From contig CAVRZA010000002.1 in assembly GCA_963725665.1 (NCBI GenBank), positions 256,001-320,000 of the forward strand: DNA of 64,000 nucleotides, in the 5' to 3' direction. Below the pieces are notes generated by a model. The model worked only from the letters and a program-made list of their open reading frames with translations, had not been told where the DNA came from and did no database searches. Each line of letters begins with the position of its first letter. The first letter of the stretch is position 1. The translations under genes were made by a program, and so were the position numbers. Positions 1 through 60,329 of the stretch are shown in pieces. The stretch comes from an uncultured Actinomycetes bacterium. Lineage in GTDB: Bacteria > Actinomycetota > Thermoleophilia > UBA2241.

Positions 1-192
1 GCGGTGCGCTGGGTCCTCGAGTGGGAGGGCGTGACCGGTGCCATCGTCGGCGCCCGCTCGCCGGAGCAGGTCGACGGCTGGATCGGCGCCGCGAGCCTCG
101 ACCTGAGCGACAAGGACCTCGACGACATCGCCACGGCGGTCATCGCCTCGCAGGCCGGCAGGGGGCGCGAGCGCCCGCGGCTGGGGCACTAG
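1..192 (+). CDS. Aldo/keto reductase, C-terminal fragment (runs off window start)
   Basis: AVRWVL...VTGAIVGARSPEQV...LDLS.DL..I is the typical AKR C-terminal motif; ends at TAG 190-192. Confidence 0.8.
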   Translation, partial: AVRWVLEWEGVTGAIVGARSPEQVDGWIGAASLDLSDKDLDDIATAVIASQAGRGRERPRLGH

Positions 193-222
193 GCTCGGGA
201 GCCAGGGGCGCGAGGAGGTGCC

Positions 223-405
223 GTGCCGAGTCCGCGGCGGATCAGGTGGATAGGGATCGTCGTGTCGGCTGCGCTCTACGTGCTGCTCGTCGGCGTCGGT
301 CTGCTCCTCTTCGGCGGCTGGCACCTCTGGTGGCCGTTCGTGTCGGCGGCGATCGCCGTCGCCGTCGGCTTCCTGGTCGTCTGGCTGCTGTTCCGCGCCA
401 AGTGA
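223..405 (+). CDS. Small two-TM membrane protein
   Basis: GGAGG RBS before GTG; two hydrophobic helices; 60 aa. Confidence 0.6.
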   Translation: MPSPRRIRWIGIVVSAALYVLLVGVGLLLFGGWHLWWPFVSAAIAVAVGFLVVWLLFRAK

Positions 406-568
406 CGCCAGGGACCCGTGCCGCCGGCTTCGGGGCCGGTACGGAGGCGCACGGGCTGACACCCTCGTTCGCCGTTCGATATCCTTGAGCGAGCGGCGGG
501 ATCGCCGGTCCGGCCTGCGCCGCTCGTTCACCATGTGGAGTGCTCGTCGAGCAGAAGGAGGCAGCCGC

Positions 569-1976
569 ATGACCATCCCCCGTCTGTCGATCTGGGACGA
601 GAACGACTGTCGCCGCGTCCACGAGGCCACTCTCACCGTGCTCGAGACCACCGGCGTCGAGGTCAAGCACGAGCGCGCGCGCGAGCTGCTCGCGGACGCC
701 GGGGCGCGGGTGGAGGGCACGCGGGTGCGCCTGGGCCGCGAGCTCGTCGCGCGCGCGCTCGAAACGGTGCCACGGCGGTCTCGAATCGCGGCGCGCGGGG
801 GAGACGGCGAGCTCGACCTCGAGTTGACCGTCGAGAACTCCTACTTCGGCACCGGCTCGGACTGCCTCTTCGTGCGCGACCCGGACTCAGGCGAGCGACG
901 CCGCGTCCGCGTCGCCGACATCGAGGGCATGGCCGCTCTCAGCGAGAGGCTGCCCAACATCGACTTCGTCATGTCGATGGGTCTCCCCGAAGACGTGGAG
1001 CAGGACGATCGACGACGTGGCCCCGTTCGTGGCCATGCTCAAGGGGACGCGCAAGCCGATCCTCGTGGCCACGCGCGACGCGCGGCCGCTGGCGCTCATG
1101 AAGGAGATGGCCGCGGCCGCCGGCGCCGGCGACAGCTTCGGCGTCTACGCGATGCCGACGCCGCCACTCATGCACGACTTCGAGGGCATGGACAAGCTCA
1201 TCACGTGCGCCGAGCTCGACATCCCGTTGGTGTACGCTCCGGCGCCGAGCGTCGGCGCCACCGCGCCGGCTTCGGTCGGGGCCATCGCCGTCACCGGCAA
1301 CGCCGAGGTGCTCTCGGGTCTCGTCGTGCACCAGCTCGTGAAGGCCGGAGCGCCGTTCGTCTACGGGTGCGGGGTAGGGAAGATGAACATGCGCACCTTC
1401 GTCGACACCTACAACCCGCCGGAGATCTTCGTCGGTCACCAGGCGGAGTCGGACCTCTCGCGCTGGTACGGCCTGCCGAGCTTCGCCTACGCCGGACACT
1501 CCGACTCCAAGCTGCTCGACGAGCAATGGACTGCCGAGGCGGCGTTCTCGACCATGCTCGGCGCTTTGTCGCGCGCCACGCTCCTGCACGACGTCGGCTA
1601 CCTCGAGACGGGGCTGCAGAGCTCATACGAGACCATCCTGATCGGCGACGAGCTGATCGGCTACGCGCGCGCCTTCATGAAGGGGCTGACGACGGACGAC
1701 GAGACGCTGGCCCTCGACGAGATCATGACCGTGGGGCCGGGCGGCGATCACCTGGGGCGCAAGTACACGCGGCAGCACCACCGCGACTTCTGGCAGGCGG
1801 GATTGTGCGATCAGCGCATCTACGACCGCTGGCTCGAGGATGGGGCAAAGACCATGAAGCAGAGGGCGAAGGAGCGCGTCGCCGAGCTGCGCTCGGAGCC
1901 GCGCTCCTTCGCCCTCGACGACGCCCAGATCGCGCGCCTCGACGAGCTGCTGGCCGAGGTGGCGAAGACGCGCTGA
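569..1976 (+). CDS. MttB-superfamily (non-pyrrolysine) corrinoid methyltransferase; one frameshift near 1003
   Basis: AAGGAGG RBS + ATG 569; VHEATLTVLETTGV N-terminus; after frame change GATAPASVGA...GNAEVLSGL.VHQL..AGAPF and AGHSDSKLLDEQ (His at the Pyl position). Confidence 0.85.
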
Positions 1977-1990
1977 CCGGCTCAGAGCGT

Positions 1991-2041
1991 GAGGGGCGGC
2001 GGGGCGGCGGCGCGATCGCGCCGCCGCCCCCGCCGCCCCTC
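1991..2041. terminator. Near-perfect GC palindrome between convergent genes; probable bidirectional terminator
   Basis: GAGGGGCGGCGGGGCGGCGGCGCGA / TCGCGCCGCCGCCCCCGCCGCCCCTC, one extra C. Confidence 0.6.
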
Positions 2042-2052
2042 GCTCACGGGCG

Positions 2053-2521
2053 TCAGTGCGGCGGGTGCGACCAGTCGACCGGCCCGACCGTGAAGCGGTA
2101 CTCGAGCCGGGCGAGCACGGTGCGCCAGGCGCGCGTGAAGTAGTGGAAGACGTCGTCCCACTGGTCGCCTTCGCGCCAGCCGAGATGGGTGAGGGCGACC
2201 CTGATGCGACGCGGCGCGACCTGCTCGAACTGCACGACGACCCATGTCTTCTGACCGCGCACCTGCGGGTACTCCGGCGGCGCGGTCCACGTGAACGAGA
2301 GCATCTCCTCGGGCACGTAGCTGAGGATCTTCATGCCCTCGCTGCCGCGTAGGCCCTTCGGCGCCTCGGGGTCGAAGTAGGCTTCGAAGGGGCCCCCGAG
2401 GCGCAGCTCCACCCTGGCCTTCGGGGCGAGGAAGCTCTGCAGGCCCATCGACGGTGGTCCACGTCTCCCACGCCTCGAGCGGTGTCGCCTCGATGGTCAC
2501 GCCGTCGCGGATCGCCTTCAC
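2053..2521 (-). CDS. SRPBCC/AHSA1-like protein; frameshift near 2447
   Basis: GGAGG + GTG 2521 (MKAIRDGVTIEATPLEAWETWTT) joins LQSFLAP..VELRLGGPFE...LSFTW...LTHLGW...W..VLARL. Confidence 0.75.
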
Positions 2522-2602
2522 CGTGCCTCCGTGTCCGGTCGGAACGACGAACGCTTTCGTCTCAACTGTACCCCGGCGGCAACGACGAGCCGGGAGCTCT
2601 GC

Positions 2603-2710: not shown

Positions 2711-2769
2711 GCCGGCAGCCTCAACGTCCTGACTGCCTGTGTTTCGCCCCCGGACACCGCGGTATAAAC

Positions 2770-2784: not shown

Positions 2785-2800
2785 AGAAGGCCGCGATCGC

Positions 2801-5926: not shown

Positions 5927-5935
5927 AAGCAGGGC

Positions 5936-14360: not shown

Positions 14361-14443
14361 GTCTACCCGTCGCGCGCAGAGCGCGCGCGCCGCGAGGTCT
14401 ACTCTTCGCGCACAGAGCGCGCGCGCCGTGAGGTCTTCTCGTC
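14361..14443. repeat. 36-bp tandem duplication spanning the 3' end of the SDH protease gene
   Basis: GTCTACCCGTCGCGCGCAGAGCGCGCGCGCCGCGAG then GTCTACTCTTCGCGCACAGAGCGCGCGCGCCGTGAG, plus a partial third copy. Confidence 0.75.
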
Positions 14444-25529: not shown

Positions 25530-28500
25530 TCACCCGGTCCGACCCGGCCGCGTGCGGGGCTCGACGACCGGCAGGTCGTCAAGCCCCTCGGCCGGGTCGG
25601 CCTTCGGCCAGCGGTGGTCCTGCCGTGAGGGTGCGGGGTAGCGCGGGTCGGGCGCCATCGGCCCGAGCCAGGGGCGTTCCGGCGGCGGTCCCGTGACCGG
25701 AGGGTGCTCTCCTCCCCCGGTTGTGTGGCGGTCGCCGCGCGGGAGGGTGCCACGGTCGCGGGGGGCCGACGGGGCGGTCGGTCTCTGGACGGTCGAGCGG
25801 CTTCCGTTGCCCGCTCCTCGCTTGAGGATCCCCGGGTCCCTGATCGCGGCCATGAGATCGAAGATGCGCTGCGCGACGACGGCCAGGCCGCGCTCGTCGT
25901 TGTTCTGCAGCTCGCCCTCGACGAGCAGGTAGACCGTCTCCTTAAGCAGCTTGCCGTAGCGCAGGAAGACGTCGTTGAAGACCACCACCTCGGCCATGCC
26001 GGTCTCGTCCTCGAGGGTGAGGAAGAGGGTGCGGTGACCGGAGCGGATCCAGGGCATCTGCGCCCGCTCGAGCACGCCGGCGAGGCGGATGCGCGTGCCG
26101 TCGCGCACCTCGACCAGGCGCGCGAAGGGCACGCAGCGCAGGCGCCGCATGCCCTCACGCGCGAAGGCCAGCGGGTGGGCGCTCACGTTGAGGTGCAGCA
26201 CCTCGAGCTCGGCGCGCACGCGGTCGGCGTCGCTCCACGAGGGGATGAAGGGCATCGGCGCCAGCTCGTCGTCGACGACGAGCGCCGTCTGCGCCGATGG
26301 GTCGGGGTTCGCTGGGCCTGCGGGCGGGGCGGGGGTCTCGGGGGGGCGGCCTCGCGGTGATAGACCTGCGGGTGGGGGTGGGGCCTCAGGACGCCCGCTC
26401 GCGCCTGCGGCGCTCACTAAGCGTCCTTCGACCCCACCCCCACCCTCCGGCCTGCGCGAGTCGCGCACTGAGTCCCCGCCCTCCGGTTCCCGTTTGGCAA
26501 CCACCCACCGGGGCAAGCCGACGTCGCCGGACGGCGACCGCTGCAGGGAGCCGGGCTTCACCCCCATGACGCGGGCGTGGATGAGCGGCACCTGCACGAG
26601 GAGCTCCTCGCGGCGCACGCCGAGGGCGTCGAAGGCGCCCACGCGCACCAGGTTCTCGACGATCTCGACGCTCACCCGCGTGCGCTCGCAGAAGTCGCCC
26701 AGCGAGCGGTAGGGTCCGCCGTTGTCGGGCGCGCGCTGCGCGATGATGGCCCGCATCGCCGCGCCGCTCATCTCCTTGACGTACTTGAGGCCGACGCGCA
26801 GCGCGCGCCCGTCGTCCTCGGGCGAGAAGCCGGGTTCGCTCAGGTTCACGTCCAGAGGCCGGATCGCGAGGGGCCAGCGACGCGCGTCGTTGAGCACCAC
26901 GCGGGGCGAGTAGAAGCCCATCGGCCAGTTGTTGAGGATGCCGCAGAAGAACTCGGCCGGGTAGTGCGCCTTGAGCCAGGCGCTGGCGTTGCAGACGACG
27001 GCGAAACAGGCGGCGTGCGCCTTGTTGAAGCCGTAGGCGGCGAAGCCGCGCAGCTGGCGGAAGACGTCTTCGGCGGTCGCGCGCTCGACGCCGTTGGCGA
27101 CCGCCTTCTCGACGAACAGGCGGCCGAGCTCGTCCATCTCCTCCATGGAGCGGTCGTGCGTCATGGCGCGGCGCAGCATGTCGCCCTCCGACAGCGAGAA
27201 GCCGGCGATGGCCGAGGCGACCTCGATGACCTGCTCCTGGTAGAGGATGACCCCGTAGGTGCGCTGCAGCGCCGGCCACATGGCGGCGTGCAGTACGGCG
27301 GCGGGCTCCTTGCCGTGCCGGCGCCTGATGAAGGGTCCGATCATCTCGGCCTGCAGCGGCCCCGGGCGAAAGAGCGAGATGGCGGCGATCACGTCTTCGA
27401 AGTCGCGCTCGCGCAGGCGCGTGGCCAGGTTGCGCTGCCCCGAGCTCTCGAGCTGAAAGACGCCCACTGTGCGCGCCTCGCGTATGAGCTTGTAGACCTC
27501 GGGATCGTCGCGCGGCAGGGTCCAGGGGTCGATGCGCTCGCCGGTGCGCGCCGCGATGCTTGCCACGGCCTCGGCGATGGCGGAGTGCATCTTGAGACCC
27601 AGGATGTCCATCTTGACGAGGCCCAGCGTCTCGACGTCGTCCTTGTCGAACTGGGCCACGATCACACCCTTGGCCGCCCACTGCAGGGGCACGCGGTCGG
27701 TGAGCCGCTCGCGGGCGAGGATGAAGCCGCCCAGGTGTGTACCCAGGTGCATGGGGTAGCCGGCGAGGCGCTCGGCGAGGGCGACGAAGCGGCTGTAGTG
27801 CGGGAGCTGGAACTCGTGGTCGGCGAGCTCGGGGCGCTCAGCGACCATCTCGCCGAGGTTGGAGGCGCTCCCCCAGGGGACGCGCCGGGAGAGGCGGTTG
27901 ACCTCGCCCGGGGTGTGGCCGAAGGCCTTGGCGACGATGCGCACCGCCGAGGGTGCGTGCACGGTGTTGACGGTGGCCACCATGGCCACCTTGTCGTGGC
28001 CGAAGCGCTCGTAGATGAAGGCGATGACCTCGTCGCGGCGCGCGGAGTCGAAGTCGATGTCGACGTCGGGCATCTCGCGCCGGGAAGGATTGAGGAAGCG
28101 CTCGAAGAGGAGGTCGTGCGCGATGGGGTCGGCGTCGGTGATGCGCAGCACGTAGCTCACGATGCTGTTGCCGGCCGAGCCGCGGCCCGAGTAGAGGATG
28201 CCGCGGGCGCGCGTGAACTCGACGATGTCGCGCACGGCGAGGAAGTACTCCGCGAAGCCGAGCTCCTCGATCACCTTGAGCTCGCGGTTGAGGCGGTCGA
28301 GCACCTCGGGCGTGAGCGGGTCGTAACGCTCCTGGGCACCGGCGAAGCAGTGCTTGCAGAGGAGCGAGAAGGCGGTCTCGCCGGGCGGCAGGGGATAGGC
28401 GGGGAAGAGGAGCTGCCCGAGGCCCAGGTCGAGGGTGCAGCGTGCGGCGATGCGTTCGGCGTTGCGGTAGGCCTCGGGGTGGCGGCGGAGGAGGCGCCAC

Positions 28501-31850: not shown

Positions 31851-33323
31851 TCACCCCACCCCGCGCTCGCGGTCGGCGCGCTCGACGATGGCGTGCACCT
31901 GTCTCGCGATGTCGGGATCGAGCGGGTCGGGCTTGTGCGTCTCGAGGATCTCGAGGGCGCGCGCGTGAGCGCGCGCGTAGGCGTCCGTGGCGCCGTCGGC
32001 CTCCCACTCCTCGCGCACGCGCCGATCGCCCACGCGCGGGTTCGACTGGGCGCGCATGAAGCGATAGGTACTCGCGAGGCTCAAGAAGTCGCCGAACGGC
32101 CCTACCGACTTGATGTCGTCGAGCATCAGCATCTCGGCGTCGACGCGCACGCCGCCGATCACCTGCTTGATCATGGCCGCCCACTCGTCGTCCATGACGA
32201 GCTGGGCGCAATCGAAGGTGACTCCCGATTCGGTCATCCCGGCTCCGTAGATGACGTTGGCTCCTGCCAGCGCCGCCATCAGGCCGGTGAGCGTCTTCTC
32301 GTGACCGATCTGCGCGTCACCGAGCTTGGAGTCACCCTACGCACCGGCGATGAAGCTCGGCAGGCGGTACTGTCTGGCGAGCTGCGCCGCACAGGCGCTG
32401 ATCAGAGCCAGTTCCGGTGAGCCGACGGCGGCAGCCGCGAAGCGCAGATCGAGCGCCGTCGTCGAGGAACCGTAGACGCAGGGCACGCCGCGCTGGGTGA
32501 GCTGCGTCAGCGTGATGCCCGACAGGACTTCCGCGTTGTGCTGCACGAGCGTCCCGGCGAGCGTCACCGGGGCCGAGCCGCCCGACATGGCCATCGAGAG
32601 GGTGGTGCAGGCGAGGCCGGCGCGCGCGGTCTCGATGATGACCTCGGTGGCGTCGCGCGTGAGCTGGAGAGGGCTCACCGGGCAGACGCCGAGGCCGAGG
32701 ATCGGCCTTTCGCGCAGCTCGTCGTGGCCGCCGGCGACCGTCGCCGCCATCTCGATGCAGGTGCGCGCCTCCCAACCCGTCACGGCCTCGCAGCCGGTGT
32801 GCTTGGTCGTGTTCGTGAGCGCCGCCTCGAGGCCGTGGATCGAGGCCGTCTCGCCGGGTACGTCCTTGGGGCCGACGGCCGACTCGTAGACGGCGATGTT
32901 GGGCAAAGCGTCGATGAGGCGGGCGACCTCGGCCACGTCGCTCTTGGTCGGGTCGCGGTACTCACCCGTGCGCGGGTCGATGTACTTGATGCCCTCGTCG
33001 AAGTTGGTGAAGTGCACCTCACCGCCGGCTTCTTCCCAGATGTCGTGCTCGGGGTTCCGACCGGCGCAGAAGACGCGTGGAGGGCAGGAGGCCAGCGCCT
33101 CCTCGATCACCTCCGGCGGGAAGCGCACCACGTGCGTCTCGCGGTCGATGTCGCAGCCTCCGTCGGCGAGGATGTCGAGCGGCTCGTCGTCCTCGACGAA
33201 CACCCCCGTCTGCTCGAGGACCTCGAGGCTGCCTTGGTGGATCTGTCGCACGGCGTCATCGCTCAACACATCCAGCCTCAGGCCGGCGCCGGCGACCGTG
33301 CTCAGGTCTGCGTCAGCTCTCAT
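31851..33323 (-). CDS. mttB: Pyrrolysine-containing trimethylamine:corrinoid methyltransferase (490 aa with TAG read-through at 32337-32339)
   Basis: [45 protein letters not shown] continues in frame; SPL and APVTLAGTLV.HNAEVLSG motifs. Confidence 0.92.
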
Positions 33324-43473: not shown

Positions 43474-43974
43474 GTGAGCGGGGGTAAGAGAGAGCAAGAT
43501 GGCACTGGGCCGGCATCGCCTGCGGCCCTACGAGGCAAGGAGCTTCCGGTGGACGACATACACGACGAGGTATTGCGCGTCTTCAACGACGCGTGCATGC
43601 CTCGCGCCAGGCAGCGGAGCACGGGACATGGGTTCTGCCCCCTGGCAGACGTGTTCTTCGAGGAGCCGACGGGTGAGATCGTCGTGCGGCTGGAGCTGCC
43701 GGGTGTGAATCGCGATGAGATACAGCTCTACGTCGAGCGGCGTCAGCTCACGGTTCGCGGGCGGCGCGAGTTCCCCGCCGGTGAGGGGCGGGTCTACCAG
43801 CAGGTGGAGATGGACTACGGCCCCTTCGACCGGCGCATCCGCCTGGCCGTCGACGCCGACGTCGACAAGACGTACGCCACCTACGACGAGGGAGTGCTCG
43901 AGATCAGATTGCCGCTGCTCACGCAGGAGTCCAAGGTGCAGCAGGTCCCCATCAAGGTCGAGGCCAAGCCATGA
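43474..43974 (+). CDS. Hsp20/alpha-crystallin family protein
   Basis: ELPGV, YGPFDRRIRL, ATYDEGVLEIRLP; coupled to lon. Confidence 0.85.
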   Translation: MSGGKREQDGTGPASPAALRGKELPVDDIHDEVLRVFNDACMPRARQRSTGHGFCPLADVFFEEPTGEIVVRLELPGVNRDEIQLYVERRQLTVRGRREFPAGEGRVYQQVEMDYGPFDRRIRLAVDADVDKTYATYDEGVLEIRLPLLTQESKVQQVPIKVEAKP

Positions 43975-46415
43975 GCAGCGAAGAGGTCGTCGTCCAGACC
44001 GACGAGGCGCAGCAGGAGATCCCCTCGGTCCTGCCCGTCCTGCCCCTGCGCGACACCGTCGTCTTTCCCGACACCATGATCCCGCTGACGATCGGCCAGC
44101 AACGCTCGATCAAGCTCATCGACGAGGTCCTGGCGAGCGACCGCCTGCTCGTCCTCGTGGCCTCCAAGAACCCCGAGCTCGAGACGCCGGGCCCGGCCGA
44201 GCTCTTCGAGATCGGCACCGTGGCGCTGGCGCACAAGATGGTCAAGCTGCCCGACAACACGATGCGTATCCTCGTGCAGGGCGTGCGTCGCGTGCGCGTC
44301 ACCTCCTACACCGAGGAGGAGCCGTACCTCAAGGCGAGCATCGAGGAGATCGACGACATCGTCGTCGAGAGCAAGGAGGTCGAAGCGCTGCGCGCCAACC
44401 TCCTCTCGGTGTTCTCGAAGATCGTCGACCTCGTGCCCTATCTGCCCGAGGAGCTCGAGATGGCGGCGGCCAACGTCGAGCAGCCCGGCGCCCTCGCCTT
44501 TCTCATCGCCAGCACGATGCGCATCAAGACCGAAGACAAGCAGGCGCTGCTCGAGGAGTCTGACGTCGAGCAGCGCCTGCGCAAGCTGACGAGCATCCTC
44601 ACGCGCGAGCTCGAAGTGCTCGAGCTGGGCTCCAAGATCCAGCAGGACGTGCGTTCCGAGATCGACAAGACGCAACGCGAGTACTTCCTGCGCCAGCAGC
44701 TCAAGGCCATCCAGGCGGAGCTCGGCGAGACCGACGAGCAGCAGAAGGAGGCCAACGAGCTGCGCGAGAAGATCGAGTCGATGAAGCTGCCCGAGGAGGT
44801 CGCCAAGGCGGCTCACCGCGAGCTCGACCGCCTCGCCAACCTCGCGCCGCAGAGCGCCGAGTATCCGGTCATCCGCAACTACCTCGACTGGATCATCACC
44901 CTGCCCTGGGACACCTCGAGCGAGGACAACCTCGAGCTGCAGCACGCGCGCGAGATCCTCGACCGCGACCACTACGACCTCGAGAAGGTCAAGGACCGCA
45001 TCGTGGAGTATCTGGCCGTGCGCAAGCTCAAGGCCGACCTGCACGGGCCGATCCTCTGCTTCGTCGGCCCACCCGGCGTGGGCAAGACCTCGCTCGGCCA
45101 CTCCATCGCCGAGGCGATGGGGCGCAAGTTCGAGCGCATCAGCGTGGGCGGGGTGCGCGACGAGGCCGAGATCCGCGGTCACCGCCGCACCTACGTCGGC
45201 GCCATGCCGGGCATCATCCTGCGCGCCATCCGCGACGCCGGCACCAACAACCCGCTGTTCATGATCGACGAGATCGACAAGACCGGCGCCGACTGGCGCG
45301 GCGACCCGGCGAGCGCGCTCCTCGAGGTCCTCGACCCCGAGCAGAACTTCACCTTCCGCGACCATTACCTCGACCTGCCCTTCGACCTCTCGAAGGTCAT
45401 GTTCATCACCACGGCCAACCAGCTCGAGCCGATCCCGCCGCCGCTGCGCGACCGCATGGAGATCATCCCGCTGGCCGGCTACACGATCGAGGAGAAGCTG
45501 CACATCGCGACCAACTACCTGGTGCCCAAGCAGGTCGAGACCAACGGCCTGAGCAAGGACCAGGTGCGCTTCGACCGCGCGGCGCTGCGCGAGATCGTCG
45601 CCGCCTACACGCAAGAGGCGGGCGTGCGCAACTTCGAGCGCGAGATCGGCAGCGTGTGCCGCAAGCTGGCCACGCTGGTCGCGGAGGGCAAGGGCGAGAA
45701 GTTCCGCGTGACGCCGAAGAAGGTGCACGAACTGCTGGGGCGTCCGCGCGTATTCCCCGAGGTCAAGCGGCGCACCTCCGACGCCGGCGTCGCCACCGGC
45801 CTCGCCTGGACGCCCGCCGGCGGCGATATCCTGTTCATCGAGGCGACGGCGATGCCGGGCAGCGGGCACCTGACGGTGACCGGTCAGCTCGGCGACGTGA
45901 TGAAGGAGTCGGCGCAGGCTGCAGTCAGCTACGTGCGCGCCCACGCCGAGGAGCTCGGTGTGCCCGACGACTACTTCCAGAAGCATGACCTGCACATCCA
46001 CGTGCCGGCGGGGGCGATCCCCAAGGACGGTCCCAGCGCCGGGGTGACCATGGCTACGGCCGTGGCCTCGCTCGTGACGGGCAAGCCGGTGAGTGCCGAT
46101 GTCGCCATGACCGGCGAGGTCACGCTCACGGGGCAGGTGCTGCCCATCGGGGGGCTCAAGGAGAAGACGCTCGCGGCGCAGCGGGCCGGCATCAGCACGG
46201 TCATCCTGCCGACGCGCAACGAGGTCGACCTTGAGGACGTGCCCGAGAACCTGCGCAAGAAGATGAAGTTCGTGCCCGTCGACCGGGTCGAGGAAGTGTG
46301 GGCGGCCTCGATGGGGCTGAAGCTCAACGGTCGCAAGACGGCGAACGGGCCGCGACCGGTCGGAGAGCGCAAGGCGGCCGCAGACAGGTCGGCTGCGGGG
46401 AAGAAGAAGGCCTAG
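43971..46415 (+). CDS. lon: ATP-dependent protease La
   Basis: LPVLPLRD, GPPGVGKTS, RGHRRTYVGAMPG, PKDGPSAG, LPIGGLKEK. Confidence 0.97.
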   Translation: MSSEEVVVQTDEAQQEIPSVLPVLPLRDTVVFPDTMIPLTIGQQRSIKLIDEVLASDRLLVLVASKNPELETPGPAELFEIGTVALAHKMVKLPDNTMRILVQGVRRVRVTSYTEEEPYLKASIEEIDDIVVESKEVEALRANLLSVFSKIVDLVPYLPEELEMAAANVEQPGALAFLIASTMRIKTEDKQALLEESDVEQRLRKLTSILTRELEVLELGSKIQQDVRSEIDKTQREYFLRQQLKAIQAELGETDEQQKEANELREKIESMKLPEEVAKAAHRELDRLANLAPQSAEYPVIRNYLDWIITLPWDTSSEDNLELQHAREILDRDHYDLEKVKDRIVEYLAVRKLKADLHGPILCFVGPPGVGKTSLGHSIAEAMGRKFERISVGGVRDEAEIRGHRRTYVGAMPGIILRAIRDAGTNNPLFMIDEIDKTGADWRGDPASALLEVLDPEQNFTFRDHYLDLPFDLSKVMFITTANQLEPIPPPLRDRMEIIPLAGYTIEEKLHIATNYLVPKQVETNGLSKDQVRFDRAALREIVAAYTQEAGVRNFEREIGSVCRKLATLVAEGKGEKFRVTPKKVHELLGRPRVFPEVKRRTSDAGVATGLAWTPAGGDILFIEATAMPGSGHLTVTGQLGDVMKESAQAAVSYVRAHAEELGVPDDYFQKHDLHIHVPAGAIPKDGPSAGVTMATAVASLVTGKPVSADVAMTGEVTLTGQVLPIGGLKEKTLAAQRAGISTVILPTRNEVDLEDVPENLRKKMKFVPVDRVEEVWAASMGLKLNGRKTANGPRPVGERKAAADRSAAGKKKA

Positions 46416-46503: not shown

Positions 46504-47202
46504 GTGAACGACGGCAAGAGCAGGGTCGGTGGGCCTGGCGAGCGGGTGCCGGCGATGTCCGACTCCAGGACGAGCACCGTTGCGGAGCGCATGCCGTCTG
46601 CGCCCGTGCTCAGTCCGGCCGCTTCCCTGCCCCCGACGGCGCTCAAGATTCTCGAGGCGGCCAAGAAGCTGCTGGCGAGCAAGGGCTATGAGGCGCTGAC
46701 CCTCGAGAGGATCGCCGCCAAGGCCGGCGTCAACAAAGCCTCGACGCGCTACTACTTCGGGAGCAAGGCCGGTCTGCTCGAGGCGATCGTCGATGAGATC
46801 GTCCTCGACGAGTGCGCCCATATGGGGCGCAGCGTCTCGCCCGACGCGCCGCTCGAGGAGCGCGTCGACGGCTTCATACAGGGCGTGCGCAGCATGGCCA
46901 CCGATCCCTCGTCGTTCGGCGGCTTCTACGACATCCTGCCGCGCGCGCTGCGTGACCAGAACTTGCGTGCGCGACTGGTGCGCCTCTACGAGGTCTGGTA
47001 TGCGTGGAACCTGGAGTGGCTGGTGCTGGAGCACGTCGAGAATGAGTCGCAGCGCGAGCAGTTGGCGGCCATAGGACAGCTCACGGCGGCGATCATCGAC
47101 GGTATCTCCGTCCAGGCTTCGATCCACGGCCGGGAATACGATCCCGAACCCACCCTCGAGACGCTCAGATACTGTCTGCTGACGGCGTTGCGCCAGCCGT
47201 AA
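46504..47202 (+). CDS. TetR/AcrR-family regulator
   Basis: ILEAAKKLLASKGYEALTLERIAAKAGVNKASTRYYFGSKAGL HTH. Confidence 0.9.
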   Translation: MNDGKSRVGGPGERVPAMSDSRTSTVAERMPSAPVLSPAASLPPTALKILEAAKKLLASKGYEALTLERIAAKAGVNKASTRYYFGSKAGLLEAIVDEIVLDECAHMGRSVSPDAPLEERVDGFIQGVRSMATDPSSFGGFYDILPRALRDQNLRARLVRLYEVWYAWNLEWLVLEHVENESQREQLAAIGQLTAAIIDGISVQASIHGREYDPEPTLETLRYCLLTALRQP

Positions 47203-47438: not shown

Positions 47439-48851
47439 GTGAGCGAGATCCTGACGCGCATGGGCGACGGCTACACGGTCGTCATGACTCCCGATGAGGT
47501 GAGGGCCGACCTGGTCGCCGGATCGGAGGACGCCGCCAAGCGGGGCAAGGTCCCCGTGCTCGAGGAGTCGGAGTTCGACTGGCTGTTCGACCTCTTCGCC
47601 AATCCGAGCCGCATCATGGGCGTCGAGCGGGGGCACGAGATCATCCTCACCAAGGACGGCTCGGTCAACACCCTGTACTCGGCGCAGCTCTCGAGCGGCG
47701 TCGGTCTGCCACTGAGCCGCGAGCAGGCCTTCCGCGTCTTCGAACGGGCCTTCTGCTTCGACACCATGGAGATCGGGCATCCCGACTACTCCTTCAAGCC
47801 GGTCAAGGCGATCGTCGCCCTGGAGGCGACCGGGGTCGAGCAGGCGCTGCACGGCACCATCATCCCGGTCTTCTACGGCGCCATGCCCAATTTCGGGCTC
47901 TACGCGCGGCCGGACGGCCCCTTCCCCAACCCCGCCGACCTGCTGCCGAAGGGGCAGATCGCTGAGGCGCGCGAGGCCCAGATGGAGATGGCCGAGATGT
48001 GCCGCGACGACATGGTCTACGTGAGCAAGAAGATGGCGGCGGTGGGGGCCGACGGCATCAATTTCGACACGACCGCCTCAGCGGGCGACGCGGAGTTCCT
48101 CGCCACGCTGCAGGCGGTCGAGGAGCTGGCCGAGAGCACCGACCTCGCGATCGAGGTGGGGATGGCCGCCGAGATGGTGCTCGGCTTCCACGGCCAGCTC
48201 GACTACGACGGCAAGAAGCTCGCCGGCATGTGGCCGCACCAGCAGGTGAAGGTCGTCGAGAAGGCCGGCGCCCATCTCTTCGGCCCCGTCGTGAACACCA
48301 ACACGCGCAAGAGCACGCCCTGGAACGTGGCCCGCGCGGTGACGTTCGTGAAGGAGTGCTCGAAGGTGGCCGAGATCCCCATCCACGCCAACGTCGGCAT
48401 GGGCGTGGGCGGCGTGCCCATGTACGAGATACCACCCGCCGACGTGCTCACGCGTGCGTCGGCGGCGATGGTCGAGATCGGCCGCGTCGACGGGTTGTAG
48501 GTCGGCACGGGCGATCCCTACGGGATGTCCGTGAGTCACGCGCTCGCCTCCGGGATGGGAGGCATCCGCACCGCTGGAGACCTGGTGGCACGGATGCAGC
48601 TCCGCAAGATGAGACTGCGGGAGGCGAAGGAGTACGTGGCCGAGAAGCTCAAGGTGAGCGTCTTCGACCTCGCCGACTCGACCGTGATGCGCGGGCTGCG
48701 GGAGGAGCTCGACATCGGCGTCATCACCGCGGTGCCGGGCTGCGCCAAGGGGCTCGAGGCCAAGGCGCGCATCGCGGACCTGCTCGACATCGAGATCAAC
48801 TCGGTGAAGCGGCTGTTCGACAAGGCCGGCGCGACCAAGGCGAGCCGGTAG
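47439..48851 (+). CDS. mtbB: Pyrrolysine-containing dimethylamine:corrinoid methyltransferase (470 aa with TAG read-through at 48498-48500)
   Basis: [34 protein letters not shown]; [41 protein letters not shown]. Confidence 0.92.
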
Positions 48852-48930
48852 GAAGACAGGGAGTGGGGCGGCCGGCCGGTTCTGCCGGTCGGCCGCCCAC
48901 GACAGGCGAAACGAGAAGGGGGAGCGCGCG

Positions 48931-50759: not shown

Positions 50760-50779
50760 CGGCGTCCCTAGATGGCCGC

Positions 50780-52286
50780 CTACTTCACCTTGCTGATGTC
50801 GATGTTGAGCTGCTTGATCTCCGTCAGCTCGTCGAAGCACCAGTCGCTGAGCTCGCGGCCCAGGCCGCTCTTCTTCACGCCGCCGAACGGCGAGAGCTGA
50901 TCCCAGCAGTTGTTCGTCTCGTTGATGAGGACCGTGCCGCACTCGATGCCCTCGCCGAGCAGGAACGCGGTCCGCAAGCTGCTCGTGAAAGCCGCGCCCT
51001 GCAGCCCGTACGGTGTCTCGTTGGCGATGCGCAGGCACTCGTCGATGTCCTTGAACGTCATGATCGGCGCCACGGGGCCGAAGGTCTCGTCGCGCGCCAT
51101 GAGGAAGTCGGAGGTGACGCCGTCGACGATGGTCACCTCCGAGTACATGCCGTCGATGGTGCCGCCCATGAGGAACGATCCGCCACGCTCGCGCGCGTCG
51201 TCGTAGTGCGACTGCACCTTGGCGACGTTCGAGAGGTTGTTGAGCGGACCCATGTCGGTGTCCTCGTCGAGCGGATTCCCGACCTTGACCTGGCCGGCTC
51301 GCTTGACCAGCGTATCGACGAACTCGTCGTGGATCGCCTCGTGCACCAGGATGCGCTCTGAGGCGGTGCACACCTGGCCGGCCAGATAGAAGCAGCCGGT
51401 GATCGTGGCCTCGACGGCCTCCTCGATGTTGGCGTCGTCCATGACCACGAGAGGACCGTTGCCGCCGAGCTCGAGCATGAGCCGTCTTGATGCCGGCGAT
51501 GCGCGTGAGGCGCTCGCCGGTCACCGTCTCGCCTGTGAAATGGATGGCGTTGGTGCCCGGGTTGCTCACCAGCTCTTCGCCGACGACACCACCCGGTCCG
51601 GTGACGACGTTGACGGCGCCGGCGGGGAAGCCGGCCTCCTCGAAGATCTCGGCCAACATCAGGGCGCTGTACGGCGTGGTGCTCGCCGGCTTGAAGATGA
51701 CGGCGTTACCGGCGGCCAGGGCGTGGGTCGCGGCGATGTTGGGGATGTCGTGCGGCCAGTTCCACGGCGAGATGATGCCGATGACCCCCATCGGCTGGTG
51801 GATCACCAGGATGCGCTTGTTGAGGGTGTCCTCCTGGATGGACGGGTTGACCCGACCGCGATACCGCTTGATGCCTTCGGCCGCCTCGATGAAGTGCGGG
51901 GCGGAGTAGTGCTCGATCTCGTCACGCGCTTCGGTGATGGTCTTGCCGCACTCACGGCAGAGGACGCGCGCATCGTGCTCAAGGCGCCGGTAGGCGATCT
52001 CGGACGCCTTGAAGAGCAGCTTCGCGCGCGCCGGGATAGAGAGCTTGGCCATCTCCTTCTGGGCCTTGCGGGCTCCGGCGATGGCCGTCTGCACGTCGGC
52101 GGCGGTGCCCTTGGGCACCGAGCCGATCAGGCTGCCGTCGCCGGGGGAATAGACGTCGAACCGCTCTCCGCTCTCGGACTCGACCCACTCGCCGCCGATG
52201 TACATCTTGTAGTCCATCGGTGGATCGGCGGGCGCCGGGTACGGCGTTGGATATGGGCCCTTGGCCCGGACTTCAGTCGTCGCCAT
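50780..52286 (-). CDS. NAD(P)-dependent aldehyde dehydrogenase; frameshift near 51486
   Basis: MYIGGEWV, IISPWNWP, FKPA, FTG, LELGGN, AGQVC, ETFGP, PFGGVKKSGLGRE. Confidence 0.9.
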
Positions 52287-52359
52287 GGCTCACGCTCCCT
52301 TCAAGCTCGTGTGAACGGCGGTTTGTTGGTTCCTGGAGCCGGCCTGCGTCAGGCCGCTT

Positions 52360-55975: not shown

Positions 55976-56365
55976 GTGGCCAAAGCCGTGGACCGCGAGA
56001 CGGCGAACGTCGGTGCCGGCAACTGGAAGGGCCTCGGCATGTGGGCTTGGCTGCTCTTCCGCGTCGCCGGCGTGGTCATTGCCATCTACCTCTTCGTGCA
56101 CATCGTGATCATCTCGCAGGGGCGCATGACCGGCGCCTCGACGCTGGACAGCATCTTCAAGACCTTCGACAAGCCGCTCTTCGTGCTCCTCGACCTGCTG
56201 CTCGTCTGGGCGGTGCTCTTCCACGGCCTGAACGGCGTGCGCGTGCTGCTCATGGACGTCGGCGTCGGTGTGCGCAGCCACAAGGCCGTCTTCGTTTGCG
56301 CCATGGTGCTGGCCGTGGCCTTGTTCGTGTTCTTCATCGTGGCCGCCTGGCCGTTCGTGTTCTAG
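55976..56365 (+). CDS. sdhC: Succinate dehydrogenase cytochrome b subunit
   Basis: GMWAWLLFRVAG, YLFVH, FHGLNGVRVLLMD. Confidence 0.85.
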   Translation: MAKAVDRETANVGAGNWKGLGMWAWLLFRVAGVVIAIYLFVHIVIISQGRMTGASTLDSIFKTFDKPLFVLLDLLLVWAVLFHGLNGVRVLLMDVGVGVRSHKAVFVCAMVLAVALFVFFIVAAWPFVF

Positions 56366-56373
56366 GAGGAGTG

Positions 56374-56826
56374 ATGGCGCAGGAGACAGTCGGCGCAGCC
56401 CCTCGCGCGGCCGCCCCGTCGCCCGCGGCCTCCGGGCCGGTGCCGGTCGGCGCGGTGCGCGACCTCGATCGCAAGCAGCTCGACGAGGCGCGCGGCGGTG
56501 TCTGGGGCTGGTTCATGCAGCGCGCCACCGCCGTGATCCTCATCGTCGGCCTCGGCACCCACCTCGTGGCGACGCACATCCTCAACATCGGCGAGCTCAG
56601 CTACGACAACATCGCCGCGCGCCTCGCCGCCGTCTTCTTCATCGTGATCGACGTCGGCCTTCTCGCGGCGGCCATCTTCCACGGCCTGAACGGCCTGCGC
56701 ATGGTCCTCCTCGACTACTTCTGGAAAGCCCGCCGGCAGCGTCTGGTCTTCGCCTATCTGCTCTGGGCGTTCGGCATCGCCTTCTTCGTCTTCGGCCTCT
56801 GGGCCCTGTGGCCCTGGATCACCTGA
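56374..56826 (+). CDS. sdhD: Succinate dehydrogenase membrane anchor
   Basis: WFMQRATA, H.VATH, FHGLNGLRMVLLDY. Confidence 0.85.
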   Translation: MAQETVGAAPRAAAPSPAASGPVPVGAVRDLDRKQLDEARGGVWGWFMQRATAVILIVGLGTHLVATHILNIGELSYDNIAARLAAVFFIVIDVGLLAAAIFHGLNGLRMVLLDYFWKARRQRLVFAYLLWAFGIAFFVFGLWALWPWIT

Positions 56827-56840
56827 CGGAGCGGGCGGTG

Positions 56841-58547
56841 GTGCACCACCAGCTGATCGTCGTGGGCGGCGGCCTCGCCGGGATGCGGGCCGCGATCGAG
56901 GCCAAGCGCGCCGGCATCGACGTCGCGGTGCTCTCCCAGGTGCACCCGGCGCGCAGTCACTCGGGCGCGGCCCAGGGCGGCATCAACGCCGCCCTCGCCA
57001 ACGACCCCGAAGGACACGACGACACCCCTGAGAAGCACGCCTTCGACACCGTCAAGGGCTCCGACTACCTCGCCGACCAGGACGCCGCCTTCACGATGAC
57101 GACCGATGCCGTCCCGGCGATCTACGAGATGGACCACTGGGGCTGTCCCTTCAGCCGCTACGACGACGGTCGCATCGCTCAGCGACCCTTCGGTGGCGCC
57201 GGCTTCCCGCGCACCTGCTACGGCGCCGACAAGACCGGTCACTACCTGCTGCACACGGTGGTCGAGCAGGGCTACCGGCAAGACGTCACGATGTACGTCG
57301 AGCAGTTCGTGGTGGCGCTCCTCGTCGACGACGGCGTCTGCCGCGGCGTGATCGCCTACGACATGGTGCGTGGCGGCTTCGGGGCGTTCCTCGCTGAGGC
57401 GGTGATCATGGCCACCGGTGGCGCCGGGCGCACCTACATCAACACGACCAACGCCATCATCTCCACGGGCTTCGGCGCGGCACAGGCCTACTACGCCGGC
57501 GTGCCCCTCAAGGACATGGAGTTCGTGCAGTTCCACCCCACGGGCTTGCGCACGACGAACATCCTCATGAGCGAGGGCGCCCGTGGTGAGGGAGCCTATC
57601 TTCTCAACGACCTGGGCGAGCGTTTCATGTCCAAGTACGCGCCGAAGGCCATGGAGCTGGCGCCGCGCGACATCACGGCCCGCTCCATCCAGACCGAGAT
57701 CAACGAGGGGCGCGGCATCAACGGCCAGGAGTACGTGTACCTCGACCTGCGCCACCTGGGCGAGGCCAAGATCGCGGAGCGGCTGCCCGGTATCCGCGAC
57801 CTGGCCATCCACTTCGAGGGTGTCGACCCCGTGTCCGAGCCGGTGCCCATCGTGCCCAGCCAGCACTACACGATGGGAGGCATCGACACCGACGCCGACG
57901 GCGCGACCGTGCTTCCCGGCCTCTACGCCGCCGGTGAGTGCGCCTGCGTCTCGGTGCACGGCGCCAACCGTCTCGGCGGCAACTCGCTCCTCGAGACGAT
58001 CGTGTTCGGCCGCCGCGCCGGGGCGGCGGCGGCGGCGTTCATCGCCGGTGGCGGCGCGGGCGGCGCCGACGGCGCCGTGACCGCCCGCGCCGCCGACGGC
58101 GCGCTCGCCGCCATCCGCGATCGCGTCGAGCGCCTGCGGCACGGCAGCGAGCAGCCCTACGCCATCCGCGCCGACATGATCGCCACCATGAAGGAGCACT
58201 TCGGCGTCTTCCGCGACGAACGTCGCATGGCCGAGGGGCTCGAGAAGATGCGCGCGCTCAAGGAGCGCGCCCGCCACGTGAAACTCATGCACGGCGGCGA
58301 CTTGTTCAACCTCGACCTCATCCGCACCATCGAGCTCGAGGCCATGGTCGACGTGGCCCTGGCCACCGCGACCGGCGCCCTGGCGCGCACCGAGTCGCGC
58401 GGCTCGCACGCGCGCACCGACTACCCCGCTCGCGACGACGTGCTGTGGCTCAAGCACACACTCGCGCACTACGAGCCCGGGGGCCCGCGACTCGAGTCCA
58501 AGCCCGTCACCCTAGGCATGTTCGAACCACAGGAGCGCAGGTACTGA
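56841..58547 (+). CDS. sdhA: Succinate dehydrogenase flavoprotein
   Basis: VGGGLAG, RSHSGAAQGG, QFHPT, SEGARGEG, HYTMGG, HGANRLGGNSL, ESRGSH. Confidence 0.95.
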   Translation: MHHQLIVVGGGLAGMRAAIEAKRAGIDVAVLSQVHPARSHSGAAQGGINAALANDPEGHDDTPEKHAFDTVKGSDYLADQDAAFTMTTDAVPAIYEMDHWGCPFSRYDDGRIAQRPFGGAGFPRTCYGADKTGHYLLHTVVEQGYRQDVTMYVEQFVVALLVDDGVCRGVIAYDMVRGGFGAFLAEAVIMATGGAGRTYINTTNAIISTGFGAAQAYYAGVPLKDMEFVQFHPTGLRTTNILMSEGARGEGAYLLNDLGERFMSKYAPKAMELAPRDITARSIQTEINEGRGINGQEYVYLDLRHLGEAKIAERLPGIRDLAIHFEGVDPVSEPVPIVPSQHYTMGGIDTDADGATVLPGLYAAGECACVSVHGANRLGGNSLLETIVFGRRAGAAAAAFIAGGGAGGADGAVTARAADGALAAIRDRVERLRHGSEQPYAIRADMIATMKEHFGVFRDERRMAEGLEKMRALKERARHVKLMHGGDLFNLDLIRTIELEAMVDVALATATGALARTESRGSHARTDYPARDDVLWLKHTLAHYEPGGPRLESKPVTLGMFEPQERRY

Positions 58548-59263
58548 TGCCCGAAGCCACCTTTCGCATCCAGCGATTCGACCCCACGCGCGACACCGCC
58601 CCCCGCTACGAGGAGTTCCGCGTGCCGTACGAGGGGAACATGACGGTGCTCGAAGGGCTCTTCTACATCCAGGAGCACCTCGACGCCTCGCTCAGCTTCA
58701 GGTACTGCTGCCGGGCGGCGGTCTGCGGCTCCTGCGCCATGTACATCGGCGGTCGCTACCGGCTCGCCTGCCAGACGAACCTGCGCCACGTGGGCGACGA
58801 GATCTCGATCGAGCCCCTGCCTCACCTGCCGCTCGTCAAGGACCTCGTCTGCGACATGACCGATTTCTTCGCCAAGTTCGAGTACGTTCGGCCGTGGCTG
58901 ATCCGTCACTCGGAGGACCCTGAGAAGGAGATCTCCCAGTCGCCCAAGCAGCGCAAGAAGCTCGACATGCCCATCGACTGCATCCTCTGCGGCTGCTGCA
59001 CGAGCTCCTGCCCGTCGGCCTGGGCCGACAGAAACTACCTCGGCCCTGCGGCGCTGCTCTGGTGCTACCGCTTCGAGGTCGATTCGCGCGACGAGGCGCA
59101 CAAGGAGCGCCTACCGGCCTTCGACAACGAGGACGGCTCCTACCGTTGCCACACCATCACCAACTGCGTCGAGGCCTGCCCCAAGAGTCTCAACCCCACC
59201 GAGGCCATCCAGTGGCTCAAGGGCGCGGCCGTGCGGCGGCGCATCCTCGGTCGCCTGAAGTAA
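58547..59263 (+). CDS. sdhB: Succinate dehydrogenase iron-sulfur subunit
   Basis: CRAAVCGSC, CILCGCCTSSCP, CHTITNCVEACPK. Confidence 0.95.
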   Translation: MPEATFRIQRFDPTRDTAPRYEEFRVPYEGNMTVLEGLFYIQEHLDASLSFRYCCRAAVCGSCAMYIGGRYRLACQTNLRHVGDEISIEPLPHLPLVKDLVCDMTDFFAKFEYVRPWLIRHSEDPEKEISQSPKQRKKLDMPIDCILCGCCTSSCPSAWADRNYLGPAALLWCYRFEVDSRDEAHKERLPAFDNEDGSYRCHTITNCVEACPKSLNPTEAIQWLKGAAVRRRILGRLK

Positions 59264-59384
59264 CTCTCCGCCGCCCTTCTGCGGAAGACCGCCCGGGGGT
59301 TGTTCTCGATCCCCGTCTTTGCGACCCCTCGGGGTCGCCGATCCTCGCGTGGCCCGACGCGCCGCGTCTCGCACTCAGCCGGGC

Positions 59385-60329
59385 CTAGAGACGGTCGATC
59401 GTGGCGAGCAAGACGCCCAACAGGGTCACGGCGGCGGCCAGCGCGAGCCTCCTGCCGAAACGTTCCCGCAGAACGAGCACACCGAGCAGGATGGCGAACA
59501 AGGGCGCCGTGGAACCGATGAGCACCGTGAGCACAGGGCCGATGTGCTCGATGACGAGGTAGTAGAGGATCGAGAAGAGGGCCTCGAGCAGCCCCGCGAA
59601 GACGATCAGCAGCACGACCTTCCGCCGCTCGGCGGAGTGAAGTGGGTGCACGAAGACCCTGGCCCGCCGCCAGAGCACGATACCGCCCAGCATCGCCAGG
59701 CCCATCGTCTGGCTCTGTAGGATCATCGTCGTGCTGGCACTGCCGACGGACTGCAGGGCGAGTTGGATCAGCACCGGCCCAAGACCCCAGCCGGCGGCCG
59801 TCACGAGCGAGAGCAGCACGACCTCCAGGCGGCTCGACTCGGCGTGTCCGGGGGTGGGCGGGGCGGCCACCTCGGCGGCGACCGCCGGGTCGGCGTGCAT
59901 CCACCGTGAGACGAGGAGTATGCCGCCGGTGGCGACGGCCAATCCGAGGACCGTGAGGCCACCGATCGCGGTCCCGATGAGCGCGGCTGAGAACAGAGCG
60001 GCGAAGAGGGGGTCGATGCTCGTGAGCGGCGTGACGACCCCGACGCGGCCGCTGCGCAGGGCGTAGTAGTAGGTGTTGAAGGCGACGAGCCAGGTGACGA
60101 CGGCGGCAATGCTGATATAGCCGACGGCGGGCCACGTCATGGCGAAGGTCAGGCTCCAGAGGTGCAGCACGGTGAGCGGCACCGTGAGCGCCAGTAGAGC
60201 CGTCAGGGACGCGATGCGCACCAGGAAGTTGGTGCCCAACGGCGTGACGTACTTGAGGACGCTCTTGTTGAGCACCACGATGGTGCCCCAGCAGGCGGCC
60301 TCGATGAAGGCCACGCCGACCCAGATCAC
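59385..60329 (-). CDS. EamA/DMT-family transporter
   Basis: Two DMT repeats (YYYALRSGRVGVVTPL..PLFA; PLFAILLG.L.LRER); start approximate. Confidence 0.8.
   Translation of the reverse strand: MIWVGVAFIEAACWGTIVVLNKSVLKYVTPLGTNFLVRIASLTALLALTVPLTVLHLWSLTFAMTWPAVGYISIAAVVTWLVAFNTYYYALRSGRVGVVTPLTSIDPLFAALFSAALIGTAIGGLTVLGLAVATGGILLVSRWMHADPAVAAEVAAPPTPGHAESSRLEVVLLSLVTAAGWGLGPVLIQLALQSVGSASTTMILQSQTMGLAMLGGIVLWRRARVFVHPLHSAERRKVVLLIVFAGLLEALFSILYYLVIEHIGPVLTVLIGSTAPLFAILLGVLVLRERFGRRLALAAAVTLLGVLLATIDRL

Follow-up and report, generated by a model that had tools for sequence, protein, structure and literature searches.

TAG as both pyrrolysine codon and frequent stop codon in a Thermoleophilia genome

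We analysed a stretch of 64,000 nucleotides (hereafter the window; C2:256001-320000, C-numbers denoting contigs of the source genome) from an uncultured soil-type actinobacterium of the class Thermoleophilia (assembly GCA_963725665.1, contig CAVRZA010000002.1), in which the codon TAG both encodes pyrrolysine (Pyl) within methyltransferase genes and ends a large part of the other genes. The source genome comprises 3.73 Mb in 12 contigs with 67-71% G+C, and is rated 97.5% complete with 5.0% contamination.

Pyrrolysine genes and TAG stops in the window

Two methyltransferase genes of the window are interrupted by an in-frame TAG (Table 1). A preliminary description of this DNA had mtbB read through one TAG and end at another. 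Both positions hold, and the gene product, with the first TAG read through, matches Pfam PF09505 (Dimeth_Pyl) across that codon with an E-value of 1.8e-199 (residues 4-459, profile 3-460 of 463). The Pyl column is TAG in all eight mtbB paralogs of the genome and in 27 homologs from the family. The second Pyl gene, mttB, is absent from the preliminary description. Its halves are two in-frame open reading frames (ORFs) that match Pfam MTTB at profile positions 29-334 and 359-498, with one TAG between them.

Elsewhere in the window, TAG is an ordinary stop. We used a custom gene caller, based on codon log-odds trained on long ORFs with high G+C at third codon positions and followed by greedy selection, which gave 51 calls in positions 1-59500, ending in TAG (22), TGA (23) or TAA (6). 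Of the 22 TAGs, two are the internal Pyl codons of mtbB and mttB and a third ends a doubtful ORF, which leaves ~19 true TAG stops among ~48 genes where a manual count had given about 20 of about 54. In 11 of the TAG-ending genes (cbiM, fumC, paaK, fpg, thioredoxin, DUF998, fasciclin, Lon, ALDH, sdhC and the SDH protease), the C-terminal Pfam profile is complete 1-35 residues before the TAG. Because the last domain is complete so close to the codon, these 11 TAGs are real gene ends and not read-through sites. Thus, the TAG-ending genes of the window are not mostly conserved read-through proteins, a possibility that the preliminary description had kept in view.

Table 1. Positions of features in the window and of the pyl loci elsewhere in the genome (C6, contig of the source genome)
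Feature	Position	Strand	Details
mtbB, dimethylamine methyltransferase	47439..48851	+	470 codons including one Pyl codon
TTG (Leu) directly 5' of the mtbB Pyl codon	48495..48497	+	
mtbB in-frame TAG, Pyl codon	48498..48500	+	residue 354; peptide VDGL-O-VGTGDP
Rfam PYLIS_2 (RF02509) match, mtbB	48498..48597	+	78.4 bits, gathering score 36; model 1-100 of 100
mtbB distal hairpin	48562..48597	+	14 bp (7+7), loop AGAC; alignment columns 65-100 from TAG
mtbB terminal TAG	48849..48851	+	next in-frame stop TGA, 50 codons on
GC hairpin past mtbB	48863..48900	+	12 nt past the terminal TAG; no T-run
mttB, trimethylamine methyltransferase	31851..33323	-	ends in TGA
mttB in-frame TAG, Pyl codon	32337..32339	-	residue 329; context AGA-O-GDSK, GCG before; split near MTTB profile ~334
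Rfam PYLIS_3 (RF02510) match, mttB	32240..32339	-	64.2 bits, gathering score 38
lon	43971..46415	+	TAG-ending conserved housekeeping gene; Pfam Lon_C, LON_substr_bdg; next in-frame stop 24 codons on
sdhC stop	56363..56374	+	TAG then GAG GAG TGA; Pfam Sdh_cyt for sdhC and sdhD
ALDH stop	50768..50782	-	TAG (50780-50782), 3 codons, TAG; Aldedh profile ends at 460/461, 9 residues before TAG
SDH-type protease stop	14363..14401	-	TAG (14399-14401), 11 codons, TAG; Pfam SDH_protease 10-282 of 286
TetR-family regulator	46504..47202	+	BetI-type C-terminal domain; Pfam TetR_N, TetR_C_6; directly upstream of mtbB
ALDH, split by frameshift near 51500	50780-52289	-	N-terminal half in other frame inside a 1403-codon shadow ORF
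Doubtful ORF	51601-51909	+	antisense to the frameshifted ALDH; TAG-ending
pyl locus 1	C6:296212-299234		pylSc, MtbC-like corrinoid protein gene, radical SAM gene, pylSn
pyl locus 2	C6:343702-347028		pylB-pylC-pylD-pylT; tRNA gene last, not first
tRNA-Pyl(CUA)	C6:343702-343774	-	ARAGORN; 54 nt behind pylD

Pyrrolysine machinery and stop codon usage in the genome and its relatives

The genome codes for a complete bacterial Pyl system alongside release factor 1 (RF1; 489.9 bits, cut-off 423). In addition to tRNA-Pyl, the catalytic and N-terminal parts of PylS are encoded by two separate genes 1.8 kb apart on opposite strands, pylSc (TIGR02367; 314.4 bits, cut-off 178.15) and pylSn (TIGR03912; 119.9 bits, cut-off 51.15). 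NCBIfam models identified PylB (TIGR03910; 448.5 bits, cut-off 348), PylC (TIGR03909; 338.8 bits, cut-off 248) and PylD (TIGR03911; 207.8 bits, cut-off 150), whose genes are mutually adjacent and directly upstream of the tRNA-Pyl gene on the same strand. The pyl genes thus occupy two loci 47 kb apart. A tmRNA is also present in the genome. Regarding the surroundings of the second locus, pylB starts 13 nt after a nitroreductase/BluB-like gene, upstream of which lie genes for a MoaD/SAMP-like protein, a ferredoxin and an aldehyde:ferredoxin oxidoreductase. There is also a tRNA-Sec gene at C11:550041-550138, and the organism probably uses both selenocysteine and pyrrolysine.

Over the methyltransferase families mtbB, mttB and mtmB, we counted 14 TAG-interrupted genes (eight mtbB, five mttB and one mtmB), in each of which a single TAG occupies the conserved site of the family; ~23 MttB-family and two MtmB-family genes of the same genome are devoid of it. 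One mtbB copy is truncated or frameshifted (C2:503948-505331), and, apart from the TAG, the other 13 Pyl genes are intact. A sixth TAG-containing mttB (C1:36714) was dropped, as its TAG lies upstream of the true start. Long in-frame extensions were also considered as a source of new Pyl proteins, but their lists mostly contain neighbouring genes that are in frame by chance, such as those of paaK and fpg.

The 14 Pyl genes themselves end in TGA (eight), TAG (four) or TAA (two), and six of the 25 family mtbB genes with a readable end terminate at TAG. The presence of TAG with both readings in one mRNA is thus common and not peculiar to the mtbB of the window. The pylSc, pylSn and pylD genes also end in TAG (three of the five pyl protein genes), with potential read-through extensions of 38, 66 and 32 codons, respectively; the pylSc end is TAG in two actinobacterial relatives and TAA in a Eubacteriales genome. 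Such ends could feed back on the supply of Pyl, their number being not significant at a 37% base rate.

In the whole genome, the gene caller predicted 3326 genes covering 82.5% of the sequence, with 1217 ending in TAG (36.6%, a figure that takes in the 14 internal Pyl TAGs), 1921 in TGA and 188 in TAA. The share of TAG is 37.4% among the 2618 calls with scores of at least 50 and 40.3% among the 518 with scores of at least 200. The genome-wide census that the preliminary description had proposed thus bears it out, with a high rather than a low share of TAG. The assembly contains frameshifts. Since 84-88% of the out-of-frame stops inside genes are TGA, wrong-frame calls or assembly frameshifts would raise the estimate for TGA and lower that for TAG. 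A full reassignment of TAG would entail the absence of RF1 and a codon unused as a stop; here, RF1 was found, and conserved proteins end at TAG.

We found no visible adaptation of this genome to chronic read-through, be it depletion of TAG, backup stops or avoidance of TAG in codon-biased genes. The median distance to the next in-frame stop is 44 codons after TAG, TGA and TAA alike (TAG vs TGA, Mann-Whitney p=0.13), and a stop is present within three codons after 5.4% of 1215 TAG, 5.4% of 1918 TGA and 7.4% of 188 TAA stops. The three tandem stops quoted in the preliminary description (sdhC, ALDH and SDH protease) read exactly as written, but nearby backup stops occur at chance level and lose their value as a hint, given the equal distances after the three codons. 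The 'backup' TGA of sdhC overlaps a GGAGGAG ribosome-binding site and the start of sdhD. As an aside, the next in-frame stop is itself TAG in 393 of 1215 cases (32%) after TAG vs 434 of 1918 (23%) after TGA.

There is no excess of coding signal past TAG either, with a 25-codon in-frame score of -4.1 vs -4.0 after TAA, and hence no indication that genes ending in TAG extend further as a class. TGA proved unsuitable as a control for this score (-7.0), probably because ATGA/GTGA overlaps place the next gene in another frame, and TAA was used instead. With codon bias, the share of TAG climbs from 28.7% (bottom quintile) to 46.5% (top quintile). In the rplB cluster (34 co-directional genes, C2:90208-115035, whose identities, except that of rplB, are inferred from size and order), 17 genes end in TAG, 10 in TGA and seven in TAA. 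TAG is thus the favoured stop of the most codon-biased genes.

PylSc scores over its cut-off in 21 of 24 relatives of the same family and in one of 16 from other families of the class. Similarly, mtbB was found in 28 of 30 family relatives, with one TAG in every match listed, and the two relatives devoid of it are the two complete genomes without PylS. Given this distribution of PylSc and mtbB across the family, the Pyl trait is family-wide and presumably old. We ran 20 relatives through the same gene caller. The mean share of TAG is 0.33 (range 0.19-0.57) in the eight PylS-positive and 0.32 (range 0.19-0.47) in the 12 PylS-negative genomes, a comparison that is a description rather than a statistical test, the relatives being related by descent; subsamples of the source genome gave 0.29-0.39, which is the sampling noise. 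Thus, among these sampled genomes there is no depletion of TAG relative to Pyl-free relatives. The first six genomes had suggested that Pyl-positive relatives are richer in TAG, a difference that was gone at 20 genomes. As relatives with and without Pyl have similar shares, high TAG use is a trait of the class, with no visible mark of Pyl on it.

Two further observations concern the relatives. One same-family genome without PylS, of 64% GC, has an unusual distribution of stops (TAA 34%, TAG 33% and TGA 33% of 167 calls). In addition, two MttB-family matches in relatives hold one in-frame TGA each and could be selenocysteine-containing members or frameshifts.

Sequence context of the pyrrolysine codons

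The Leu codon preceding the Pyl TAG is TTG at all 10 such sites of the genome (seven mtbB, two mttB and one mtmB), and TTG makes up 5.2% of the Leu codons of the genome. The four non-Pyl MttB paralogs with Leu at the same position have CTG or CTC. At 28 mtbB sites (27 from the family, two of them the source genome's own, and one from the Pyl-positive genome of another family), the preceding codon is TTG in 24 cases, TTA in two and TAC (Tyr) in two. We also examined 123 matches to an mtbB pattern in metagenomes, with TTG in 113, TTA in four, CTG in four, CTT in one and TTC in one; the pattern admitted any YTN codon, three of the matches are not mtbB and the count bears on mtbB only. UUR thus represents 117 of the 122 Leu codons before TAG in this set. 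At metagenome loci with a GC content of at least 0.66, UUR is found at 42 of 42 sites, vs 4% of the other in-frame Leu codons. The base that follows the Pyl TAG is G at all 14 sites in the genome, and the residue encoded next (Gly, Ala or Val) dictates this base. The UUG codon lies outside the Rfam PYLIS models. A literature search on pyrrolysine and UAG context yielded nothing on the UUG codon by title or abstract among the matches listed.

Downstream of the codon, PYLIS_2 matches all eight mtbB TAGs (60.7-89.3 bits) and no other site in the genome, and PYLIS_3 matches all five Pyl-type mttB TAGs (54.6-71.4 bits). All 13 Pyl codons of mtbB and mttB are therefore followed by an over-threshold match to one of these models, which describe predicted elements. 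Since such matches partly reflect coding homology, RNA structure was tested separately. In all eight mtbB genes, the 90 nt that follow the TAG exceed the gene average in stability. In the alignment of the eight paralogs, the consensus fold of the post-TAG window has a value of -23.7 vs a mean of -7.9 (standard deviation 6.0) for 74 windows, and 1.4% of windows are at least as stable.

The distal hairpin of mtbB is supported by covariation. In 27 family sequences, 90.5% of its cells are paired, and the observed covariation score was not attained in any of 500 shuffles, with slid controls far below it. In 113 metagenome mtbB sequences with a GC content of 50-74% (116 distinct stretches with the full 105 nt downstream, minus three that are not mtbB), 87.4% are paired, vs 81.4% with shuffled columns. 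At one synonymous third-position pair, these sequences have CG (31), UG (21), UA (20), GC (13) or AU (13). That mtbB is structured and mttB is not parallels the work of Theil Have et al. (2013), in which a canonical structure was obtained for mtbB but not for mttB (PMC3639795). A separate feature of the same region is the motif GGAGAYCTGGT (columns 79-89 after the mtbB TAG), almost invariant in nucleotides across the 113 diverse sequences. It holds the rare Gly codon GGA (98%) and a Shine-Dalgarno-like GGAG 5 nt before an in-frame GTG.

Around mtbB, two features of the window may bear on its expression. The TetR/BetI-type gene directly upstream is, by its position only, a candidate for a substrate-responsive regulator. 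Past the terminal TAG, positions 48852-48930 are predicted to fold at -42.1 kcal/mol (ViennaRNA), and the hairpin that they contain possibly marks the end of the transcript; a match to toga_FSE at this place (25 bits, below the threshold of 40) was rejected as merely reflecting the GC hairpin.

Several other genes of the window are split. The ALDH half-gene was considered as a case of TAG read-through and rejected, as its break is a frameshift and not a TAG, probably a long-read assembly indel; the ORF antisense to it is likely spurious. A TAG-free MttB-family gene (560-1976, plus strand) matches its Pfam profile at positions 23-170 and 226-492 in different frames, and the PHP domain of DnaE (25530-29770, minus strand) is encoded at 29315-29770, apart from the remainder (25530-28643). 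Both of these splits are probably frameshifts.

Coexistence of the two readings of TAG

One of the closest counterparts is Acetohalobium arabaticum, whose genetic code was reportedly shown by experiment to expand in dependence on the carbon source (Prat et al. 2012). Like our genome, it is that of a bacterium with a split PylS, pylBCD and Pyl methyltransferase genes, in which TAG is still a general stop, and it serves as the model for TAG being a stop unless methylamine is present. Its pyl genes are expressed only with trimethylamine, as summarised in PMC11467909. In contrast with this experimentally studied organism, the actinobacterium described here is known from its sequence only, has a high GC content, 14 Pyl genes and ~37% of TAG ends, and carries its pyl genes in two separate loci with pylT behind pylD. 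Zhang et al. (2005) are also said to have described Pyl-decoding bacteria in which UAG is frequent as a stop.

That UAG is a frequent stop in Pyl bacteria such as Desulfitobacterium hafniense was already published in 2005-2007 (PMC1976440). The delta1 symbiont of Olavius, which carries numerous copies of mtbB and mttB and has eight Pyl proteins, uses selenocysteine as well (PMC1976440). A cis element has been sought in these bacteria, with no common structure found (Zhang & Gladyshev 2007; PMC1976440). Our genome resembles both organisms as a Pyl-decoding bacterium in which UAG is often a stop; unlike them, it belongs to another phylum and has 14 Pyl genes, and here Pyl-free relatives were compared and the hairpin and the UUG codon quantified. 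Among archaea, the share of TAG has a median of 5.0% (range 1-27%) in Pyl-positive and of 22.0% in Pyl-negative genomes (PMC12626013). UAG has both meanings in Methanosarcina acetivorans as well; according to the same source, the codon is ambiguous in Methanosarcina, with a supply-and-demand model put forward and no known targeted mechanism (PMC12626013). With 36.6% TAG, like shares in Pyl-positive (0.33) and Pyl-negative (0.32) relatives, and a bacterial RF1 instead of aRF1, our genome does not follow this pattern, and the contrast with TAG-depleted Methanosarcina drawn in the preliminary description holds. Two Actinobacteria were among 81 bacterial genomes with PylRS in 2022 (PMC9630628), and our literature searches found nothing relevant linking pyrrolysine and Thermoleophilia. 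Thus, the pattern known from Desulfitobacterium and Acetohalobium is found here in a new lineage.

We lean towards a model, probable rather than certain, in which the supply of Pyl-tRNA that competes with RF1 is limited or conditional, and the context of the Pyl sites works in their favour. The outcome would be set at the ribosome by competition of the two at every UAG: RF1 would terminate at the ~1200 ordinary TAG stops, and Pyl-tRNA(CUA), charged by the split PylSc/PylSn with Pyl from PylBCD, would insert Pyl at the 14 catalytic TAGs. On the supply side, the Pyl-tRNA pool would be low or substrate-induced, and the tRNA and the amino acid are probably made together, as pylT sits directly behind pylBCD. 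The scarcity of Pyl-tRNA, or its production on need, is suggested by the ~1200 TAG stops, whose potential extensions are long and for which the genome shows no compensation. On the site side, the UUG before the TAG, the G after it and the PYLIS element downstream may favour Pyl-tRNA. The cell would tolerate occasional read-through at terminal TAGs or clear it through ribosome rescue, for instance by tmRNA; past the terminal TAG of mtbB, a read-through ribosome on a hairpin-ended mRNA may run off its end and be rescued in this manner. As no adaptation to collisions of the readings is visible in the genome, their damage is most likely limited by supply and site.

Several points weigh against this competition model. 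The stop censuses all rest on one crude home-made gene caller, and the relatives were sampled at 40-200 kb each and are mutually non-independent data points. Conditional expression of the pyl genes is something that we infer purely from the analogy with Acetohalobium and the lack of read-through adaptation, and the pyl genes do not look like one tidy inducible operon, with pylSc following a cell-wall amidase gene after 13 nt and 47 kb separating it from pylBCD-pylT. The PYLIS matches are largely expected from coding-sequence homology: a non-Pyl mttB paralog scores 29.7 bits with PYLIS_3, below the threshold, and the PYLIS_1 match at the mtmB TAG (57.8 bits) is under the gathering score of 70. 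In mttB, the 90-nt stretch behind the TAG does not exceed other windows of the gene in stability (ranks 0.53-0.99). In mtbB, the proximal PYLIS_2 hairpin is marginal (67.7% paired vs 65.9% shuffled), and the supported hairpin, 64-99 nt past the first base of the TAG, is too far to touch a ribosome that decodes the UAG. Finally, true TAG stops do not avoid UUG, which represents ~6 of ~92 terminal Leu codons, near the background. Thus, the 'context-directed' recoding of the preliminary description stands in part: the conserved PYLIS matches, the mtbB hairpin and the UUG codon speak for it, if indirectly, but the PYLIS elements were catalogued before, mttB is devoid of structure, and no result here shows that these features decide between Pyl and stop. 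A role of context in this choice and the clean-up route are parts of the model rather than observations.

In a stricter mechanism, UUG-UAG-G together with PYLIS would recruit or strongly favour Pyl-tRNA, much as SECIS elements direct the insertion of selenocysteine, and ordinary TAGs would never be read at any level of Pyl-tRNA. We consider it unlikely. To our knowledge, there is no Pyl-specific elongation factor, which weighs against such a mechanism, and none was looked for in the source genome. The context is conserved at every Pyl site, PYLIS_2 matches nothing else in the genome, the mtbB hairpin covaries, UUG precedes TAG across GC classes and TAG stays the favoured stop of the most codon-biased genes, as if ordinary stops were immune. 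However, no single element is common to the three gene families, the supported hairpin lies far downstream, and mttB has no structure here or in PMC3639795; according to PMC3639795 and PMC12626013, PYLIS can be dispensed with in a heterologous host, and a targeted mechanism is not known.

If Pyl-tRNA were instead always present and untargeted, each UAG would be modestly read through and the cost simply borne, as in laboratory amber-suppressor strains. Ambiguous decoding of UAG is the current view for Methanosarcina (PMC12626013), pylSc is apparently joined to a housekeeping-type gene, and the mRNAs of the four Pyl genes that end in TAG face both readings. Chronic read-through should nevertheless leave a trace in a genome with 37% TAG ends and a median extension of 44 codons, and there is no excess of backup stops, the trend in highly expressed genes is opposite to avoidance, and TAG is not depleted relative to Pyl-free relatives although the trait is family-wide and hence old; we therefore regard constitutive suppression as doubtful. 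It is very improbable that the system is a decaying relic, with TAG being only a stop and the interrupted genes pseudogenes. The broken mtbB copy and other broken genes in the assembly would fit this idea, but each of the six pyl components exceeds its curated cut-off, and 13 Pyl genes show no other defect, their coding sequence continuing past a TAG at the exact conserved site. Of 30 family relatives, 28 show the same pattern, and mtbB is missing from the two that lack PylS.

In 2025, work on archaea again raised the question of how a cell copes with a codon that stands for both a stop and amino acid 22. For this question, the lineage described here represents an extreme natural test case, with 14 Pyl genes, a share of TAG (~37%) above the archaeal range of 1-27%, and close relatives with and without Pyl. 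The lack of depletion, backup stops and avoidance implies that regulation or context holds read-through at ordinary stops to a negligible level. Concrete, mutable sequence features are available in the UUG codon and the hairpin. The findings are also relevant to the design of amber-suppression systems and to gene calling in Pyl-bearing genomes from metagenomes. More tentatively, the meaning of UAG may be set site by site, a UUG in the P site with tRNA-Leu(CAA), together with PYLIS, tipping the contest towards Pyl at the 14 sites and leaving ordinary TAGs effectively immune. We hold this to be a doubtful proposition. If it were true, the UUG that almost always precedes the Pyl codon of mtbB would amount to a recoding signal that has gone unnoticed so far, and the site-by-site setting would explain how this family has long retained pyrrolysine with TAG as the preferred stop of its most highly expressed genes.

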